From the NCBI GenBank assembly GCA_965612745.1, contig CBFDTD010000003.1:1816-65815 (forward strand): DNA of 64,000 nucleotides, in the 5' to 3' direction. Shown one piece after another: positions 17,805-56,198 of the stretch; the first letter of the stretch is position 1; each line of letters opens with the position of its first letter. The notes under the pieces were generated by a model. That model did not search any database. It had not been told where the DNA came from and worked only from the letters and a program-made list of their open reading frames with translations. The stretch comes from an uncultured bacterium. Its GTDB lineage: Bacteria; Chloroflexota; Anaerolineae; B4-G1. A program made the position numbers and the translations under genes.

Positions 17805-17903
17805 GGGTGTGGCTAAAATCAGTGGGACGTCCGGCTTCAGCCGGAAAATCCCCGCTGAAGCGGGGCCTCCGGCCTTTTCTCCCCACGAATTTTAGCCAGA
17901 CTC
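17805..17903 (+). mobile_element. MITE-A full copy (99 bp), TIR GGGTGTGGCTAAAAT / ATTTTAGCCAGACTC, flanked by 9-bp TSD GTTTTGCAC
   Basis: Direct repeat GTTTTGCAC at 17796-17804 and 17904-17912. Terminal inverted repeats of about 15-18 bp. Internal hairpins CCGGCTTCAGCCGG and CCCCGCTGAAGCGGGG. Confidence 0.8.
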
Positions 17904-33378: not shown

Positions 33379-33466
33379 GGGTGTGGCTAAAATCAGTGGG
33401 ACGTCCGGCTTCAGCCGGAAAAGCCCCGCCTCCGGCCTTTTCTTCCCACGAATTTTAGCCAGACTC
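33379..33466 (+). mobile_element. MITE-A copy (88 bp, internal 11-bp deletion) with TSD CCGGTCAT
   Basis: Flanking direct repeat CCGGTCAT at 33371-33378 and (T)CCGGTCAT at 33467-33475. Confidence 0.75.
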
Positions 33467-42823: not shown

Positions 42824-43861
42824 ATGCAATCTCCAACCCCCAATCTCCAGTCCCCCAATCTCCACTCCCCAATCGGCTTCCTCACCGCCTACGTGCCGGA
42901 GGAACTCTTCCACGCGGCGGGCTTCACTCCCGTGTTCATCTTCCACACTCCGGACGACCACGGCTACGCCCGCGCCCACCTGCCCGGCTTCACCTGCTGG
43001 ATCGCCGGTTCCGCCCTCGACCAGGCCCTCGCCGGCGAACTGGACGGCCTGGCCGGGATGGCCCTTGCCCAGACCTGCGACACTATGCAAGGGCTAACCG
43101 ACCTTTGGCGACGCAATGTGCCTCACATCCCCCTCTTCCACTTCGGGATGCCGCTGCGCCTGGACGGCCCCTCCGCCCGCGCCTACCTCCTGGCCGAACT
43201 CCGATCCTTGCGTGAGCGAGTGCAGGCCGTGACCGGTCGCCCCATCTCCGACGACGCGCTGCGGGAGAGCATCGCGCTCTACAACCGCACCCGCACCCTG
43301 GTGCGCCGCCTTTACACCCACGCCGCCGACTTCGCCCCACCCGACCTGTACGCGCTGGTGTGGGCCGCTCTCTCCTCTACTCCTCTGCCCCCCTGCTCCC
43401 CTGCTCCTCTGCCCTCTTGCTCCTCTGCTCCCCTGCTTCTCCTCGTCGGCTCTGCCCTGGCTGACCCCGTCCTCTTTGACGTCATCGCCCAGGTTGGCGC
43501 CCGCGTGGCCGGTGACCTGCTGGACCTGGGGGAACGCTACTTCGCGGTGGACGCCGCCGAGGACGGCGACCCCCTCGAGGCCATCGCCGACCGGCTGTTG
43601 GCGCTGGTGCCCACTCCGACCAAGCATCATCCCCAGCACACCCGCACCGCCCACCTGCTGTCGCTGGTGCGGGAGCGCAACGCCGACGGTGTCATCTTCG
43701 CCCGTCAGAAATTCTGCGAGCCCCACGGCTTCGACTACGTGCAACTGGCCCACGCACTGGACCAGGTCGGCGTGCCCCACCTGCTGGTCGAACTGGAGCA
43801 GGCCTCTCAGGCCGGCCAACTGCGCACGCGGGTGGAGGCGTTTGTGGAAATGCTGGCTTAG
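42824..43861 (+). CDS. 2-hydroxyacyl-CoA dehydratase subunit (HgdB-like) carrying a CT-rich octamer-repeat insertion
   Basis: GFLTAYVPEELFHAAGFTPV and LDGLAGMALAQTCDTMQGL align to the HgdB N-terminal blocks. C-terminal FARQKFCEPHGFDYVQL. Insert PLPPCSPAPLPSCSSAPLLLL. Confidence 0.75.
   Translation: MQSPTPNLQSPNLHSPIGFLTAYVPEELFHAAGFTPVFIFHTPDDHGYARAHLPGFTCWIAGSALDQALAGELDGLAGMALAQTCDTMQGLTDLWRRNVPHIPLFHFGMPLRLDGPSARAYLLAELRSLRERVQAVTGRPISDDALRESIALYNRTRTLVRRLYTHAADFAPPDLYALVWAALSSTPLPPCSPAPLPSCSSAPLLLLVGSALADPVLFDVIAQVGARVAGDLLDLGERYFAVDAAEDGDPLEAIADRLLALVPTPTKHHPQHTRTAHLLSLVRERNADGVIFARQKFCEPHGFDYVQLAHALDQVGVPHLLVELEQASQAGQLRTRVEAFVEMLA
43384..43441. repeat. Imperfect octanucleotide (YCTGCTCC)-like tandem repeat / 75-nt polypyrimidine tract inside the HgdB-like gene
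   Basis: CCTGCTCC CCTGCTCC TCTGCCC TCTTGCTCC TCTGCTCC CCTGCTTC. Confidence 0.7.
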
Positions 43862-43915
43862 CGGTATAATCAATCCCAAAATGGGACAAATTTGGGCCAT
43901 TTAGAGGATGAACTT

Positions 43916-44707
43916 ATGACTCTCCGGGACATTCTCAGCGAGAGAGCAGAAGATGAAGGACTGCCCCTCCAGGTACTGATTAAAGAAGCACTCCAGGTCT
44001 ACGCACTGTCCGAGATCTATGACCAGCCGGAGTCGCGCCACATCACTTTCCAGGGAGGCACCTGCCTCCGATTGGTGTACGAGGGAGCCCGGTACTCGGA
44101 AGACGTGGATTGCGTAACCTCACTGGGGATTGAGGAGTTGAAGCCGCTCTTTATGAAAGTGAAGCGTGCACTACTTCACCTTGGCCCCCTGCTCGAAGGA
44201 GAGATTGAGGCCCGTATCCAGAAGGAGAGCCCTGAACTTGTCCGCTGGCAGGTTCGTTATCGTACCGCCGATGTGCCATCCACCTTCGTCAACGTCGAGT
44301 TTGGCTTTTACCCCGCCTACACCGCCCGCGTCGCCTCACTTCACATCCCGCCAGGCCTGCCGGGGCTGCCACTGGTGCTGGTTCGAGCGGAGGAGCCGGA
44401 GGAGATTATGGCCGACAAAGTCGCTGCTATTGCCGGTCGCCCCTACGTCAAGGGACGGGACATCTTCGACCTCTGGCTGCTGCAGAAGAGAGACATCAAG
44501 TTAGACCACGCCCTGGTGGAAAAGAAGTTCGCCGACTACGCTGTACCTCCCGATGGCCTGCGCCGGAATCTGCCACACATCACGCCCGAGATGGTGCGCC
44601 TGGAACTGGAGCGTTTCCTTCCCAGAAGATACCGCGTCCAACTTCAAGGGGAGGCGCTGGAATCACTGGTCGCCGAAGTGAAAGAGCTGCTTGAGTCAGT
44701 AGTATGA
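43916..44707 (+). CDS. AbiEii-family nucleotidyltransferase toxin (type IV TA, DUF1814)
   Basis: ITFQGGTCLRLVYEGARYSEDVDCV matches the GGTAL...RFSEDIDF NTase motif of AbiEii. Start taken at ATG 43916 (RBS GAGGATGA). Confidence 0.75.
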   Translation: MTLRDILSERAEDEGLPLQVLIKEALQVYALSEIYDQPESRHITFQGGTCLRLVYEGARYSEDVDCVTSLGIEELKPLFMKVKRALLHLGPLLEGEIEARIQKESPELVRWQVRYRTADVPSTFVNVEFGFYPAYTARVASLHIPPGLPGLPLVLVRAEEPEEIMADKVAAIAGRPYVKGRDIFDLWLLQKRDIKLDHALVEKKFADYAVPPDGLRRNLPHITPEMVRLELERFLPRRYRVQLQGEALESLVAEVKELLESVV

Positions 44708-45306
44708 AGTACTTCACCCTCGACCGTTGGATTGAAGCCCTGCAACAATTGGGCAGACAAGGAGGCAGGATCCTGACACCACAGGCTCTCTCCTTGGTCT
44801 CCGGTCTGCCCGAGGAAACCGTTCGCAAGGCCCTGCGCCGGTTGGAATTGAAAGGATATGTCAGGCGATTGGGGAAAAGGCTTTACGCCAACACCTTCTT
44901 TCCCCCCACCCTCGAAGAGGTGGCAATGGTGCTGGGCCGTCCTTGCTATGTTTCGTTTGAGAGTGGGTTGGAGCGGCATGGGCTGCTCTCCCAGATGCCC
45001 CTGCTCCTCACTTGTGCCTCGACCGTGGAATCGGGAAGCAAAGAGACGCCCTTCGGGGAGATCCTCTTCCACCGCCTCAAGCCCTCCCTGTTCTTCGGCT
45101 ACGCCGCCAGCGACGGAGTGCTTTGGGCTGAGCCGGAGAAGGCGCTGCTCGATTTCATCTACATCAGCCTCAAGACTGGAGGAGGGCTTCCGTCACTCGA
45201 CGAACTGGCGTGGGAACGGCTCGATTACGCCAGGCTTGAGGAGTGGGCCCGGCGTTACCCCCGTAGCGTGAGGAGAAATCTGATCCCTTGGATTAACAAA
45301 CAATGA
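44704..45306 (+). CDS. AbiEi-family wHTH antitoxin / transcriptional regulator
   Basis: N-terminal wHTH ILTPQALSLVSGLPEETVRKALRRLELKGYVRRLGKRLYA. C-terminal LLDFIYISLKTGGGLP block. ATGA overlap with the AbiEii stop. Confidence 0.65.
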   Translation: MKYFTLDRWIEALQQLGRQGGRILTPQALSLVSGLPEETVRKALRRLELKGYVRRLGKRLYANTFFPPTLEEVAMVLGRPCYVSFESGLERHGLLSQMPLLLTCASTVESGSKETPFGEILFHRLKPSLFFGYAASDGVLWAEPEKALLDFIYISLKTGGGLPSLDELAWERLDYARLEEWARRYPRSVRRNLIPWINKQ

Positions 45307-45309
45307 GGT

Positions 45310-46509
45310 TTGATGCCCAAATATCCCCGTCTCCGGTCGCTTAAAGAGATCAACAGCGTGATGACACGCTACTACGTGCAGCGCAAGGCACTGGCGCGGC
45401 TCAAACCGCTGGCCTACGTCACCAGCGGTGCACCGGTCGAGATCCTGGAGGCAATGGGCATCTTGACGCTCTACCCGGAGAACTACACCGCGCTGTGCGG
45501 TGCGCGCGGGGCCGCCGTTGGCCTAGCCCGTGTGGCCGAGGCGCAGGGCTACCCGGCCGACCTCTGCTCCTACGCCCGCAGCCACGTCGGGGCAGTGCTG
45601 CGTCCCAGGGAGGCACCGCTGGGTGGGATGCCCCGCCCCGACCTGCTGGTCTGCTGCAACAACATCTGCGGCACCGTCCTCAAGTGGTACGAGGCACTGG
45701 CCGCGCTCTACGACGCGCCCCTCTTCGTCCTCGACGTGCCCTTCCAGCGCACCACCCCGGCCGAGCCCCACATCATCACCTACGTCGCCGATCAGTTGCA
45801 GGAGTTCGTCGCCTGGCTGGAGGCGCACACAGGCCGTCGCCTGAAGCCCGACAAATTCCGCTCCGTGCTGGCCCTCTCCCGCGAGGCGGTCGCGCTGTGG
45901 CAGGAGATTCTGGAGTTCGGCCAGTATCGGCCCTCCCCCATCAACGCCCCCGATCTCTTCGTCGCGATGGCCCCCATCGTCGCGCTGCGCGGCACACGCC
46001 GGGCGGTGGACTGCTACCGTCGCCTCAGGGCCGAACTGGAGGAGCGCGTCGCCCACTCCATCGGCGCGGTGCCCGGCGAGCGCTACCGCCTTCTCTGGGA
46101 CAACATCGCCATCTGGTATCGCCTCTACCGCTTCTTCCGTCCCTTTATGGACGCGGGCGCCTGCTTCGTCGCCGATACCTACACCAACGCCTGGACTGTC
46201 GAACTTGACTTGGAGGAGCCCTTCGTCGGCCTGGCACGTGCCTACACCGGCGTGTTCATCAACGTGGACCTGTCCACGCGGTTGCGCATCATCTCCGACC
46301 TGGCCCGGCGCTTCGAGGTGGACGGGGTGGTGATGCACGCCAACCGCTCCTGCAAGCCCTTCTCCATCGCTCAGAACGATATGCGAGACACGCTGCGGGA
46401 CGAACTGGGGCTCCCCGTCCTCATCCTGGAGGCCGACCAGTGTGATGCGCGCCTCTATAACGAGGGGGCAGTACGGGAGCGTGTGGCGGCGTTCCTGGAA
46501 ATGCTGTAG
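45310..46509 (+). CDS. 2-hydroxyacyl-CoA dehydratase subunit (HgdA-like)
   Basis: LLVCCNNICGTVLKWYEALAALYDAPLFVLDVPF and VVMHANRSCKPFSIAQNDM match the HgdA conserved blocks (CCNxxC, NRSCKP). Confidence 0.8.
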   Translation: MMPKYPRLRSLKEINSVMTRYYVQRKALARLKPLAYVTSGAPVEILEAMGILTLYPENYTALCGARGAAVGLARVAEAQGYPADLCSYARSHVGAVLRPREAPLGGMPRPDLLVCCNNICGTVLKWYEALAALYDAPLFVLDVPFQRTTPAEPHIITYVADQLQEFVAWLEAHTGRRLKPDKFRSVLALSREAVALWQEILEFGQYRPSPINAPDLFVAMAPIVALRGTRRAVDCYRRLRAELEERVAHSIGAVPGERYRLLWDNIAIWYRLYRFFRPFMDAGACFVADTYTNAWTVELDLEEPFVGLARAYTGVFINVDLSTRLRIISDLARRFEVDGVVMHANRSCKPFSIAQNDMRDTLRDELGLPVLILEADQCDARLYNEGAVRERVAAFLEML

Positions 46510-46510
46510 G

Positions 46511-46885
46511 ATGTCCGGCTTCTTCGAACGAGTTTATCAACTGGTGCGGCAGGTGCCGCCTGGCAAGGTTACCTCTTATGGGGCGATCGCCCGTATGCTG
46601 GGCCACCCGCGCGCAGCCCGCACCGTCGGTTGGGCATTGCACAGCCTGCCGGATGGCTCCGACGTCCCGTGGCACCGCGTGATCAACAGCCAGGGCCGCA
46701 TCTCCACCAGTTGCCGGGAGCATAGTGCCGACCTCCAGCGGGCGTTGCTAGAGGCTGAGGGGATCGAGTTCGACGAACATGGGTACGTGGACTGGGAGCG
46801 TTTCGGCTGGGAAGGACTCTCTTGGCTGGAAGTTGAGAAAATCGTCGCTTTCCTTGACACCGATACGAAATGCGGTATAATTTAA
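46511..46885 (+). CDS. Alkyltransferase-like (ATL) protein, MGMT DNA-binding fold lacking the acceptor Cys
   Basis: VPPGKVTSYGAIARMLG...VPWHRVINSQG: PWHRV replaces the PCHRV of Ogt/Ada, the ATL hallmark. ATG at 46511 directly after the hgdA stop. Confidence 0.7.
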   Translation: MSGFFERVYQLVRQVPPGKVTSYGAIARMLGHPRAARTVGWALHSLPDGSDVPWHRVINSQGRISTSCREHSADLQRALLEAEGIEFDEHGYVDWERFGWEGLSWLEVEKIVAFLDTDTKCGII

Positions 46886-47269
46886 ATGCAATGAACGCAT
46901 ACTTGGGTCATCTGAGTAATCATATACAAGGCTCGTTGGTCCTCACCGGTGCCTGTTCCACCTTGGGCGATGCACGGGTGACCGGTAGGTGTATGCCTTG
47001 CCATCTGCCCAGGCGGACGTCGGCAGTGTATCTGCCGAGCGGGACGGTAAACTGGCCCTGCCAGCAGGCCAAGGCGCAGTCGCGTGCGGTGGGTGGGACC
47101 GTCAGGGCCTGCATTGCAGATCGGGCATTCTCAGAATTGACAGCACCTTATCAGCACCATACTGCAAGCGCCGCCGAGTTTGCGGCGGCGGCATGGTCGG
47201 TTTCGGGTTACGAGCCCGAATCCTCTCCAGAGGAGGAGGTGTGCGGGGGTACGTGACTTCCCTGATTGG

Positions 47270-47312
47270 CGAGGAGCGCGGGGTCTTACCCAAGACCTCG
47301 CGCTTTTTTATT
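47270..47312 (+). terminator. Rho-independent terminator (GC stem plus TTTTTTATT)
   Basis: GAGCGCGGGGTCTT-ACCCA-AGACCTCGCGC followed by TTTTTTATT. Lies about 390 nt after the ATL stop. Confidence 0.5.
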
Positions 47313-47343
47313 GCACTCTACCAATCCCCGCACCTTCATCTCG

Positions 47344-47511
47344 TTGCGAGGGTGACTACTCAGCCGCCCCGCCAGATTCGAGATCGGACGCAGATTAACG
47401 CGGACTCTCGCAGATCAAATTCAAACATCAGCGTTTGTCGGCGTTCGTCTGCGTCCCAAAGGATGCGCTTCAATGGCTCATCTGAGGTCGGCTGAGTAGT
47501 CACTTGCGAGG
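47344..47511. mobile_element. 152-bp MITE-like element with perfect 15-bp TIRs (GTGACTACTCAGCCG) and 8-bp TSD TTGCGAGG
   Basis: TIR 47352-47366 and its reverse complement at 47489-47503. Direct repeat TTGCGAGG at 47344-47351 and 47504-47511. Confidence 0.7.
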
Positions 47512-47554: not shown

Positions 47555-47627
47555 GCCCCGGTGGCTCAAATGGTAGAGCAGCCGTCTTGTAAGCGGCAGT
47601 GTGGCGGTTCGAACCCGCCCCGGGGCT
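47555..47627 (+). tRNA. tRNA-Thr (anticodon TGT)
   Basis: Manual cloverleaf: acceptor GCCCCGG/CCGGGGC, D-stem GCTC/GAGC, anticodon stem GCCGT/GCGGC with loop CTTGTAA (U33, anticodon TGT, A37), T-arm GGCGG-TTCGAAC-CCGCC, discriminator T. 73 nt. Confidence 0.8.
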
Positions 47628-47630
47628 TCG

Positions 47631-47683
47631 CTCCCCCACCGTCCAGGTGCGCGGGCGCGGGTTTAAGTCCCGCCGGGGGAGCA
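47631..47683 (+). other. Armless tRNA-like minihelix (acceptor stem plus small hairpin plus T-arm-like hairpin, no anticodon arm) immediately 3' of tRNA-Thr
   Basis: CTCCCCC...GGGGGAG 7-bp outer stem ending with discriminator-like CA. Inner GCGGG-TTTAAGT-CCCGC T-arm-like hairpin. CACC-GTCCA-GGTG hairpin. Confidence 0.35.
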
Positions 47684-47701
47684 TCGTGGAGGAGAAAGAT
47701 T

Positions 47702-48226
47702 ATGACAGCGGGCGTTTTATTACTCAATGCTACATACGAACCCCTGCGGGTCATCTCGACCCGGCGGGCAGTCAGCCTGCTGATGCGAGGGGTTGCCGAG
47801 GGCGTCGAAGGCGTCGCGGCCCGGCTGCGCACGCCCAGCACGGTTTTCGAGGTGCCCTCCGTGCTACGGCTGCGCTACTACGTCAACGTCCCCCAGCGCG
47901 GGGCTACGTGGAGCCGCCGTGGCGTTTTGGCCCGCGACGACTACACCTGCGTGTACTGCGGCGTCCGTGTCGGGGAGCGGCGCCATGGCCGGATCCTCAC
48001 CCGCGCCGACTTCAGCGTAGATCACCTCATCCCCCGTAGCCGGGGCGGGAGCAGCACCTGGGGCAACACGGCCTGCGCCTGCCGCTGGTGCAACGGGCGC
48101 AAGGGGAACCGCACGCCCCACGAGGCGGGGATGCGTCTCCGGTGGGAGCCCAAGACGCCTCGCGTCAACTACCTGGTCGTCTCTGGGGAGGTGCCGGCTG
48201 AGTGGAAGGTCTACCTGCGGATGTAA
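47702..48226 (+). CDS. HNH endonuclease family protein
   Basis: CVYCG...VDHLIPRSRGG...WGNTACACRWCNGRKG HNH/His-Me finger motif. RBS GGAGGAG then ATG at 47702. The ORF-track start at 47504 would read through the tRNA and is rejected. Confidence 0.75.
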   Translation: MTAGVLLLNATYEPLRVISTRRAVSLLMRGVAEGVEGVAARLRTPSTVFEVPSVLRLRYYVNVPQRGATWSRRGVLARDDYTCVYCGVRVGERRHGRILTRADFSVDHLIPRSRGGSSTWGNTACACRWCNGRKGNRTPHEAGMRLRWEPKTPRVNYLVVSGEVPAEWKVYLRM

Positions 48227-48316: not shown

Positions 48317-48415
48317 GAGTCTGGCTAAAATTCGTGGGGAGAAAAGGCCGGAGGCCCCGCTTCAGCGGGGATTTTCCGGCTGAAGCCGGACGTCCCACTG
48401 ATTTTAGCCACACCC
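48317..48415 (-). mobile_element. MITE-A full copy (inverted), TSD AAATAATGT / AAATAATAT
   Basis: Flanking 9-bp repeats at 48308-48316 and 48416-48424 (8/9 identical). Confidence 0.75.
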
Positions 48416-54818: not shown

Positions 54819-55307
54819 CGCAATCTCCTTGCCGGTAAGCGTGAAAGGGTGCACGGTGGTCGAAACCGCGTGCTACGTGCTGCGAAACTGACCAGCGTCG
54901 GTTATAAATGTCGGCGCAGGCCGACTTGGCTGCGCGTAGCCCTGGTCACCGGGCGGGGAATTTTCTGATAGCCTGATTATAACCGCCTTTGCGCTATGCG
55001 CCAAATGCGGGCGTATCATCTGGGGACAAGAATAAGCGGGAAAGGGGACTGCAGCGTTCGTTATTCGACCTTTTCTGATAGCCAAGCGTAAGCATAATCA
55101 AACGTCCATTTGCCCCTGGAGCCAATACCTCCACAGGTGGGATTTTCGGGAGACAAAGCCCAATATGTGAGGGTATGTGGCAACCTCGACGGAACCACGC
55201 GGTCTGTCGCTTGTCCCAAATGTGTGACGGTCGCCAAATCCGCATTTTGAATTTATGCAAAGTATGCTATAATGAAGTGGGAAATGAAGGTACCCCAAAG
55301 GATGACC

Positions 55308-56198
55308 ATGCAGACACAGATTGAGGAATTCCTCCGCTTTTTGGCGGTAGAGAAAGGCCACTCGAAACATACTATCGCGGCTTACCGCAACGACCTCGCT
55401 CAGTTCCTGAACTATATGGCAGGGGAGGCTGTTTCTTCCTGGCAAGATGTGGATCGGCCCCATATCCTGAACTACATCTTGTATCTGAAGGAACGTGAGT
55501 ACGCCCCTTCGACAGTAGCCCGTAAAATTGCGGCGGTTAAGTCGTTTTTCCATTTCCTGGTTGCCGATGGAGTGCTCCAGGATGATCCCACCGTCGCGGT
55601 GGATTCGCCTCCGGTAGAAAAGCCCCTCCCGCATCCTCTAAGCCCAGAGGAAATGGCTCGCCTGCTGGCGGAGCCAGCCAAGTCCAGTACACCTAAAGCA
55701 CTGCGGGATTGGGCCATGTTCGAGTTGATGTACGCAACCGGCATGCGAGCCAGTGAGGTCATCGGACTGGAAGTGGAGGCAGTAGATCTGGAGGCCGGAA
55801 CGGTGCGCTGCCTGGGCAAAGGGAACAAAGAGCGTATCCTCCCGTTGTATGAGCGTGCGCAGGAGGCGCTCAAGGCTTATCTTGAGAACGCTCGCCCCAG
55901 GTTGCTACGAGGGCGAGACGAGACGGCGTTATTTGTCAATCACCGGGGGCGGCCTCTGACCCGACAAGGGCTCTGGTTGATCGTCAAGGAGTATGCCGCA
56001 GCCGCTGGTATCGAACGCCCGGTTACTCCACACACGTTTCGTCACTCCTTCGCCACCCACATGCTCGATGGTGGTGCGGGACTGCGTGAAGTCCAACAAT
56101 TGCTAGGCCACTCCAATATTTCCAGCACGCAGGTATACACTAAGGTTTCCACCCGGCTCAAGCGAGAAGCGTATGACAGGGCTCACCCGCGTGCGTAG
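55308..56198 (+). CDS. Tyrosine recombinase, XerC/XerD family
   Basis: N-terminal core-binding (SKHTIAAYRNDLAQF). C-terminal R...HxxR...Y catalytic residues (HTFRHSFATHML...STQVYT). Confidence 0.8.
   Translation: MQTQIEEFLRFLAVEKGHSKHTIAAYRNDLAQFLNYMAGEAVSSWQDVDRPHILNYILYLKEREYAPSTVARKIAAVKSFFHFLVADGVLQDDPTVAVDSPPVEKPLPHPLSPEEMARLLAEPAKSSTPKALRDWAMFELMYATGMRASEVIGLEVEAVDLEAGTVRCLGKGNKERILPLYERAQEALKAYLENARPRLLRGRDETALFVNHRGRPLTRQGLWLIVKEYAAAAGIERPVTPHTFRHSFATHMLDGGAGLREVQQLLGHSNISSTQVYTKVSTRLKREAYDRAHPRA

Follow-up and report, generated by a model that had tools for sequence, protein, structure and literature searches.

The stretch analyzed here comprises 64,000 nucleotides (nt) of contig CBFDTD010000003.1 from an uncultured member of the Anaerolineae (hereafter, the window). 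Within it, an intact tRNA-Thr gene and an HNH endonuclease gene are separated by an element of 53 nt (47631–47683) that can be folded like a tRNA devoid of its anticodon arm. The question raised by this locus is what such an element is: a functional tRNA-like RNA, a scar left by a mobile element or what remains of a former gene. Its placement three nt past tRNA-Thr, followed by a ribosome-binding site (RBS) and the HNH gene, had been given correctly in every sequence detail by a preliminary description of this DNA. Having compared the same site in related genomes, we consider it highly probable that these 53 nt are what is left of a decaying tRNA-Arg(UCU) gene, i.e., an ordinary pseudogene and not a new class of RNA.

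Origin of the Element from a tRNA-Arg(UCU) Gene

The comparison was based on 3342 homologues of the HNH protein and 383 related stretches in genome contigs; 80 genomic loci were fetched, together with the metagenomic contigs encoding the closest proteins (loci are referred to by L numbers). In L002, L017 and L225, tRNA-Thr is followed by an intact tRNA-Arg(UCU) gene and then by the orthologous HNH gene. The best case is L225, whose HNH gene is 90% identical to that of the window and where the order is tRNA-Thr(CGT), full tRNA-Arg(TCT) and HNH. Its flanks match those of the window (...GGGGCTTCG(T/C)TCCCCC and CCCGCCGGGGGAGC) and its source sample, ERZ27227318, also yielded a window-type contig. 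Further, an intact tRNA-Arg(TCT) gene is found in the same array of L084, two positions upstream of HNH.

The window element aligned to both ends of the intact tRNA-Arg(UCU) genes of L002 and L017. When the elements of the window and of L219 were aligned pairwise to the tRNA-Arg genes of L084 and L017, a single gap of 23 nt (AGCGG..CTGAT) was observed at positions 26–48, which means that position 26, the anticodon stem-loop and the variable loop are missing. The gap was placed by affine-gap pairwise alignments and a three-way alignment. A MAFFT alignment of the remnants with full tRNAs put it over the D arm, and was rejected because placement over the anticodon arm aligns the flanks better, with an identity of 21/25 in the 5′ part for L219 vs. 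L084. ARAGORN made no call on the native remnant sequence; once the 23 nt of L084 were put back between 47656 and 47657, it called a tRNA-Arg(tct) with default settings. Hence, the element shows homology to tRNA-Arg on both sides of a defined lesion, and an intact tRNA-Arg occupies the orthologous position in L225, L002 and L017, as expected of a pseudogene.

In the course of events that we propose, the ancestral tRNA-Arg(UCU) would have been the last gene of a tRNA array, situated between tRNA-Thr and the conserved HNH nuclease gene. A 23-bp deletion would then have excised position 26 together with the variable loop and the entire anticodon stem-loop between them, fusing the D arm to the T arm. 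The element resembles a tRNA lacking an anticodon arm because the leftover acceptor, D and T stems still pair. The preliminary description's reading of a tRNA without an anticodon arm was thus right, and right by descent, since a tRNA-Arg(UCU) gene lost that arm. It had also stated, again rightly, that the element is not a duplicate of the 3′ half of tRNA-Thr.

Judged from its sequence, the remnant could not function as a tRNA, because the anticodon is gone, the T loop has UUU in place of UUC and the pair 7:66 is broken. C35 is the major identity element for arginyl-tRNA synthetase. Since AGA codons are still in use (38/1107 Arg codons in 22 long open reading frames (ORFs) of the window), we infer that a functional copy of tRNA-Arg(UCU) is encoded elsewhere in the genome.

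Fold and Detectability of the Remnant

The features of the locus are compiled in Table 1. The stem CTCCCCC/GGGGGAG (47631–47637 and 47675–47681) and the T-arm-like hairpin GCGGG-TTTAAGT-CCCGC of the preliminary description were recovered at the same coordinates. In addition, G47630:C47682 extends the stem to 8 bp and a D-arm-like hairpin (47641–47656), overlooked at that time, is present between its strands. Three bases (TCG) lie between the discriminator of tRNA-Thr, T47627, and the stem as first described.

Table 1. Coordinates of the features at the tRNA-Thr/HNH locus of the window.
Feature	Position	Strand	Evidence
tmRNA-like gene, 3′ remnant (TCCCCGCACCTTCATCTCGTTGCG...), last ~29 nt	47321–47349	+	Alignment to RF00023 3′ ends, L005, L219, L001
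tRNA-Thr(UGU), intact and functional-looking, without encoded CCA	47555–47627	+	Rfam RF00005, 65.4 bits, model positions 1–71; ARAGORN
Outer 8-bp GC-rich stem, GCTCCCCC (47630–47637) with GGGGGAGC (47675–47682)	47630–47682	+	Folds
tRNA-Arg(UCU) gene remnant, positions 1–25 fused to 49–73	47632–47681	+	Alignments to L002, L017, L084, L225
Former acceptor 5′ strand, TCCCCCA	47632–47638	+	Compared with TCCCCCG/GCCCCCG in L084, L225, L002, L017
Former D arm, GTCC (47641–47644), loop AGGTGCGC (47645–47652), GGGC (47653–47656)	47641–47656	+	
Deletion junction, GGGC joined to GCGGG	47656–47657	+	Pairwise alignments to L084, L017; same junction in L219
Former T arm, GCGGG (47657–47661), loop TTTAAGT (47662–47668), CCCGC (47669–47673)	47657–47673	+	
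Former acceptor 3′ strand, CGGGGGA, plus discriminator G	47674–47681	+	
Shine–Dalgarno sequence of the HNH gene, GGAGGAG	47688–47694	+	Sequence
HNH endonuclease gene, 174 aa	47702–48226 (ATG 47702)	+	Pfam HNH and HNH_5

In the ancestral tRNA register, position 1 corresponds to T47632 and the discriminator to G47681. The trailing CA noted earlier is indeed there, but it is not a CCA end in this register. Only six of the seven acceptor pairs form, as a change of G to A at position 7 gives an A7:C66 mismatch (A47638:C47674) in place of the G7:C66 pair of the orthologues. The loop TTTAAGT carries C56T and G57A with respect to TTCGAG(C/T) in the intact orthologues, the latter change being common to L219, and so departs from the canonical T54-Ψ55-C56-R57-A58. 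The D arm joins the T arm directly, leaving no four-arm cloverleaf, and the tmRNA-type identity pair G3:U70 is absent, pairs 1–3 being U:A, C:G and C:G.

The folding energy of the 54-nt element was −31.8 kcal/mol (z = −2.66), and 2 out of 200 shuffled sequences folded as well. By itself the fold is only suggestive, because the z-score with flanks included was −1.44 and the DNA is 61% GC; what shows that the element did not arise by chance is that related genomes have a tRNA gene homologous to it. ARAGORN, one of the tools proposed in the preliminary description, and Rfam yielded no call for the element at usable thresholds. At E ≤ 10, neither a 1351-nt nor a 75-nt query gave an Rfam tRNA match for the remnant. 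With the 75-nt query, the top match was a chance-level one to mascRNA (47632–47680; 14.4 bits vs. a threshold of 42.5 bits, E = 0.74), and RF00023 (tmRNA) matched the T-arm segment only, with 5 bits.

Divergence of the Remnant among Related Lineages

The window sequence is carried by 13 near-identical contigs (L081–L083 and L209–L218), which within the 160 nt preceding HNH differ at a single site, 47651 (G/A), belonging to the former D loop. Two more distant lineages also bear a pseudogene. L219, whose HNH is 88% identical to that of the window, has the same deletion; 3 of its 17 pairs are broken (two of the five T-stem pairs and one acceptor pair), compensatory changes were not found and its predicted fold has no T arm. 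In L087/L088 (HNH 91% identical), only GCTCCCCC-GCC-GGGGGAGC is left, which forms an acceptor-stem hairpin. Exactly this shorter form would result from a further slip between two CCCGCCG repeats that border the acceptor strands on the inside.

Between the window and L219, the remnant diverged at 12/54 positions (22.2%), a value similar to those obtained for the 4-fold degenerate sites (21.2%) and the third codon positions (21.1%) of HNH, with 4/73 (5.5%) for tRNA-Thr. Together with the broken pairs and the loss of C56 and G7 in the window copy, divergence at the synonymous-site rate is the pattern of a decaying pseudogene. Purifying selection thus appears to have been lost, given the neutral rate and the uncompensated disruptive changes, with the outer stem alone remaining below the neutral expectation.

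Several observations weigh against complete decay, or against a single course of it. All 17 pairs of the acceptor (8 bp), D and T fold are intact in the window copy, and between the window and L219 paired positions changed less than unpaired ones (4/34 vs. 8/20). Further, a single substitution was counted in the 16 bases of the outer stem when the window, L087 and L219 were compared, against about five expected at the rate of 4-fold sites. This test used pairwise counts and our own branch lengths, and its Poisson P of about 0.04 was obtained post hoc from three lineages. There may thus be constraint on the outer hairpin itself, or on the sequences next to the tRNA-Thr 3′ end and the HNH RBS. 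Finally, the HNH gene tree joins L084, with its intact tRNA-Arg, to L219, which has the deletion. From this grouping it follows that the deletion is recurrent, that this short tree is unreliable or that the array has recombined.

Transcription and Possible Functions of the Remnant

A scan of the 74-nt gap between tRNA-Thr and the HNH ATG found neither a σ70-like promoter on the + strand nor a terminator-like site. Because of this, co-transcription of tRNA-Thr and HNH is likely, as far as can be read from the sequence. The remnant would then most likely continue to be transcribed, as a passive spacer that separates tRNA-Thr from the HNH mRNA, and at most its outer GC-rich stem would be an ordinary hairpin in the HNH leader.

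The alternative that survives best takes up this last point and proposes that the tRNA-like interior is junk, and that the outer ex-acceptor stem is kept by selection in the tRNA-Thr/HNH co-transcript. As a hairpin, it might stabilize the 5′ end of the HNH mRNA once the tRNA has been cut off, act as a trailer guiding 3′ processing of tRNA-Thr or compete, via CUCC/GGAG pairing, with the RBS. The outer stem is the only part common to all three pseudogene-bearing lineages, with 8/8 pairs intact in the window, 8/8 in L087 and 7/8 in L219, although the interior decays or is deleted, and the deficit of substitutions described above points in the same direction. In addition, the leader motif GGGGG(A/G)..GTGGAGGA also occurs in L222 and L003, which offer another C-run as its pairing partner, and in the 79 HNH loci every one of the 80 tRNAs detected runs in the same direction as HNH, consistent with co-transcription. 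However, the signal comes from three lineages and a post hoc test, with zero compensatory changes. The form seen in L087 is what a slip between the CCCGCCG repeats yields automatically, selection being unnecessary, and a hairpin of this kind is missing upstream of many orthologous HNH genes. Moreover, conservation of these bases in the intact orthologues is explained by their belonging to a working tRNA. Overall, we regard selection on the hairpin as unlikely, with decay of a tRNA-Arg gene remaining the preferred interpretation. The restriction of conservation to a plain hairpin, the outer ex-acceptor stem, is an outcome that the preliminary description itself had taken to speak against its proposal.

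A more far-reaching version supposes that a tRNA-shaped handle is required upstream of the IscB-type HNH gene, and that here the armless derivative or the ex-acceptor hairpin serves as such by RNase P/Z-type processing. If this were true, the usual player of the role in most lineages would be the last tRNA of the array, processing would release and define the HNH mRNA as in a bacterial counterpart of MALAT1-mascRNA, and a by-product of ~50 nt, possibly CCA-tailed, could arise. On present sequence grounds, we find this very unlikely.

Similarly improbable, to a slightly greater degree, is a functional armless tRNA-like RNA, excised by RNase P/RNase Z and possibly CCA-tailed, which would act as a decoy, a processing handle or a molecule akin to the tRNA-like domain (TLD) of tmRNA. 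Acceptor–T minihelices are known to suffice as substrates for RNase P, the CCA-adding enzyme and certain synthetases, and the intact acceptor, D and T stems of the window copy would fit such a role. The weak resemblance to mascRNA extends over exactly 47632–47680, and two or more lineages, with HNH genes 12% apart, carry the deleted form. Against this, the T arm is broken in L219, both D and T arms are gone in L087 and the element as a whole diverges neutrally, with no compensatory changes; the idea of a decoy or processing signal put forward in the preliminary description therefore found no support. The loss of C56, the mismatched 7:66, the lack of G3:U70 and of an encoded CCA, and a mascRNA score far below the family threshold also argue against function.

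That the element might be an intrinsic terminator or attenuator of the tRNA-Thr transcript is suggested by a GC-rich hairpin directly 3′ of a tRNA gene, but is barely tenable: the stem is not followed by a T-run (GGGGGAGCATCGTGGAGG) such as an intrinsic terminator requires, the terminator scan was negative at the element and the HNH RBS and start codon follow within 20 nt.

The HNH Gene, Its tRNA Arrays and the Island Question

The HNH gene is 60–100% identical across Anaerolineae and related classes and behaves as a conserved chromosomal gene; the homologues among the 120 matches listed are 69–100% identical and nearly all labelled Chloroflexota/Anaerolineae. Of 79 genomic loci, 13 have a tRNA or tmRNA-like gene on the HNH strand whose end is no more than 250 nt away on the upstream side, and the tRNA closest to HNH differs (Arg, His, Thr, Gln, Lys or Phe). 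In the closest relatives the block is ordered as small ORF, tmRNA-like gene, tRNA array and HNH, with differing genes downstream, and the Shine–Dalgarno motif GTGGAGGA is conserved across relatives. These arrangements raise the possibility of a functional link between the IscB-type HNH protein and stable-RNA genes.

The preliminary description had seen in a tRNA gene next to an HNH gene the typical context of an island or attachment (att) site. In that reading, HNH would be part of a mobile element that had inserted at the tRNA, with the minihelix as an att-derived partial copy of a tRNA. Apart from the adjacency of tRNA and nuclease genes, it could draw on the genes after HNH, which vary among close relatives (a GAF kinase in the window, Fur-FeoAB in L084, CSD/RRM in L220 and others), and on a miniature inverted-repeat transposable element (MITE) copy just past HNH. 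However, the remnant comes from an Arg and not from a Thr tRNA, and it keeps both ends around an internal deletion, unlike an att duplication. HNH stays on the tRNA side in all relatives, and an intact tRNA-Arg stands between tRNA-Thr and HNH in L225, L002 and L017. No second match to the tRNA-Thr 3′ end or to the remnant 3′ end was found within 3 mismatches in the 64 kb. No integrase was found near the site, the only tyrosine recombinase in the vicinity being XerD, 7.5 kb away (55272–56195; 346.6 bits vs. a cutoff of 329.6 bits). The neighbouring genes encode a GAF histidine kinase, DUF58, MoxR and MGMT-like proteins and components of an HGD-D dehydratase. With no repeated tRNA 3′ end, no integrase and an HNH gene conserved after tRNA arrays, the island reading is largely refuted and we give it next to no credence.

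The proposed check on the presence or absence of HNH was carried out as well, and HNH was found after the array in every relative examined, a result limited by the fact that loci retrieved by HNH homology could not lack HNH. From gene order, HNH thus appears to be a stable resident that ends a dynamic tRNA array, not island cargo, the tRNAs being the variable part. A metagenome scan with the junction pattern CCGGGGCTN{1,6}GCTCCCCC was too unspecific, the HNH protein being encoded in 0/120 loci among the matches listed.

Further variation was observed in the tRNA genes themselves. In L084 (~2955–2985), and also in L085 and L086, a tRNA-Thr-like 5′ fragment, GGGGCCGGTGGCGCAAATGGAAGCGCA, lies directly before the HNH RBS; it corresponds to the acceptor 5′ strand plus the D arm, and the same lineage keeps its tRNA-Arg(TCT) intact. 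The window tRNA-Thr differs from the orthologous tRNA-Thr(CGU) of L087 and L219 at 3–4 of 73 positions. Its anticodon is TGT (47555–47627), vs. CGT in L087 (2889–2961), L219 (1796–1868) and L225 (27–102), which is an isoacceptor switch via a single C34/T34 change.

The 174-aa protein has an HNH domain of the IscB/Cas9 type. Its best PDB profile matches were the HNH domains of IscB and Cas9d (E 1e-8 to 1e-6), and the NCBIfam IscB and Cas9d models matched residues 66–156 weakly, below their whole-protein cutoffs. PADLOC and PHROGs searches returned generic HNH matches only. Residues 1–65 were not covered by any profile in Pfam, NCBIfam or PDB searches, and an AlphaFold model built from a 12-sequence alignment had pLDDT < 50 over residues 1–70, unusable for assessing a PLMP domain. 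A stretch, VLLLN..YEPL, may resemble the PLMP motif, and the domain was confirmed neither by the profiles nor by the model. No transposase, of the IS200/605 kind or other, was found near the gene, nor an associated ωRNA; a conserved upstream block of 420 nt with the appearance of a non-coding RNA proved to be an ORF of 121 codons. IshB proteins of the OMEGA family combine PLMP and HNH domains in about 180 aa (PMC10734217, PMC11610941). The window protein is alike in its size and in its single HNH domain, nearest to those of IscB and Cas9d. It differs in having no confirmed N-terminal PLMP domain and no transposon context, and in being a conserved chromosomal gene. On these sequence features, we did not file it as an IshB.

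Two further observations concern mobile or accessory sequences in the window. A MITE-like repeat of ~97 nt is present in six copies per 64 kb, one of them immediately downstream of the HNH gene (48319–48412) and the others starting at 17879(−), 33442(−), 42000(−), 59935(+) and 62549(+). The repeat folds into a long hairpin (z = −4.9), and its copies are mostly near-identical, those at 33442 and 42000 being altered. Most of them are flanked by direct duplications of 6–9 bp that look like target-site duplications (TATTGATA, GTGCAAAA, ATGACCGG). In addition, a gene for an AbiEii-like nucleotidyltransferase toxin (43892–44707) and a winged-helix AbiEi-like gene (44704–45306) are inserted as a pair between the HGD-D (2-hydroxyacyl-CoA dehydratase) genes at 42824–43861 and 45310–46509.

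Upstream Small Gene and Reduced tmRNA-Like Gene

A complete tmRNA-like gene of 122–126 nt was found in relatives at the place where the window holds only a 3′ end (L005 2561–2682, L001 2799–2922, L009 2721–2843, L010 2713–2837, L002 2356–2478 and L219 1086–1211). It scored 51–65 bits with Rfam RF00023, above the gathering score of 47 bits, and retains both tmRNA ends, with ~288 model positions (pseudoknots and tag frame) reduced to about 38 nt. G3:U70 and a canonical T arm are present, as is a 3′ ACC, and a five-sequence alignment showed compensatory changes in the acceptor and P2 helices. No conserved tag ORF was seen in the relatives' gene. A similarly reduced tmRNA that lacks the tag occurs in jakobid mitochondria (PMC3590771). 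The alignments indicate that the window lineage deleted this gene, so that the cluster would contain two stable-RNA genes in decay.

Further upstream lies a small ORF of 121 codons (ATG 46891 to TGA 47256), preceded by a perfect promoter, TTGACA-16-TATAAT (46854–46881), and followed by a terminator consisting of a strong hairpin plus T6 (47274–47309). Because the ATG is so close behind the promoter, its mRNA would be leaderless. The ORF had no Pfam, PHROG or PADLOC match, is fast-evolving and accompanies the tmRNA-like/tRNA/HNH block in nine or more lineages. By eye, the stretch RTLAVRLP..VEWLRQQAEAQ looks like a putative ribbon-helix-helix. A non-coding RNA of ~425 nt at 46885–47312 was an appealing candidate, with a promoter, a terminator, conservation at the nucleotide level and an ORF of only 53% amino-acid identity. 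It was rejected because all nine homologues keep the 121-codon frame intact, as befits a small protein gene. In addition, variation by codon position (857/726/1285) was highest at the third, and L003 has an in-frame deletion of 27 codons. A tRNA-Arg(acg) called by ARAGORN at 47172–47272 was also discarded as a false positive: it is 101 nt long, overlaps the 3′ end of the 121-codon ORF and has no Rfam support.

Comparison with Known Systems

The more general lesson of this locus is that tRNA-like hairpins beside tRNA genes can be decayed tRNAs, and that comparison of the same site in relatives settles the matter quickly. Across lineages, stages in the death of a tRNA gene can be followed, from the intact gene through loss of the anticodon arm to an acceptor hairpin only. 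The remnant itself raises no new question; the tag-less tmRNA-like gene, the linkage of HNH to tRNA arrays and the MITE might.

With tRNA-gene att sites of islands and prophages, the locus shares only a tRNA beside a nuclease gene. The window contains no 3′-end repeat or integrase, and HNH is orthologous and syntenic with the tRNA array class-wide, so that an HNH gene next to a tRNA is an unreliable island marker in this lineage. The mascRNA and MEN-beta RNAs (Rfam RF01684) are likewise tRNA-like elements embedded in longer transcripts, but they are eukaryotic and evolutionarily unrelated to an element of tRNA-Arg origin. Acceptor–TψC minihelices and the tRNA-like domain of tmRNA are matched in shape only, by an acceptor stem plus a T arm. 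Those molecules are functional: their T loop is conserved, they end in CCA and they carry identity elements, G3:U70 among them. The remnant has a UUU T loop and the A7:C66 mismatch, it lacks identity elements and sister lineages have not conserved it.

Regarding gene organization, the locus resembles the thrU-tyrU-glyT-thrT-tufB operon of E. coli, in which tRNA genes are co-transcribed with a downstream protein gene. Here, too, one or more co-oriented tRNA genes end 20–75 nt before a protein gene, with no recognizable promoter or terminator between them, and tRNA processing would free the protein mRNA. The differences are that co-transcription is deduced from sequence in the present case, that a small HNH nuclease is encoded downstream and that the last tRNA varies by lineage.

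As to the element itself, it behaves like the tRNA pseudogenes found in bacterial tRNA clusters, given its true tRNA descent, its invisibility to tRNA finders, its neutral rate of change and the dynamic array in which it lies. Many described bacterial tRNA remnants are 3′ fragments left by integrating elements. In contrast, an internal deletion of 23 bp has here taken the anticodon arm and the variable loop and kept both ends, leaving an "upper-half" mimic of a tRNA, and a second lineage shows, as the next step, the acceptor hairpin only. Judged by these alignments, the element is a further bacterial tRNA pseudogene, unusual only in the neat excision of its anticodon arm.

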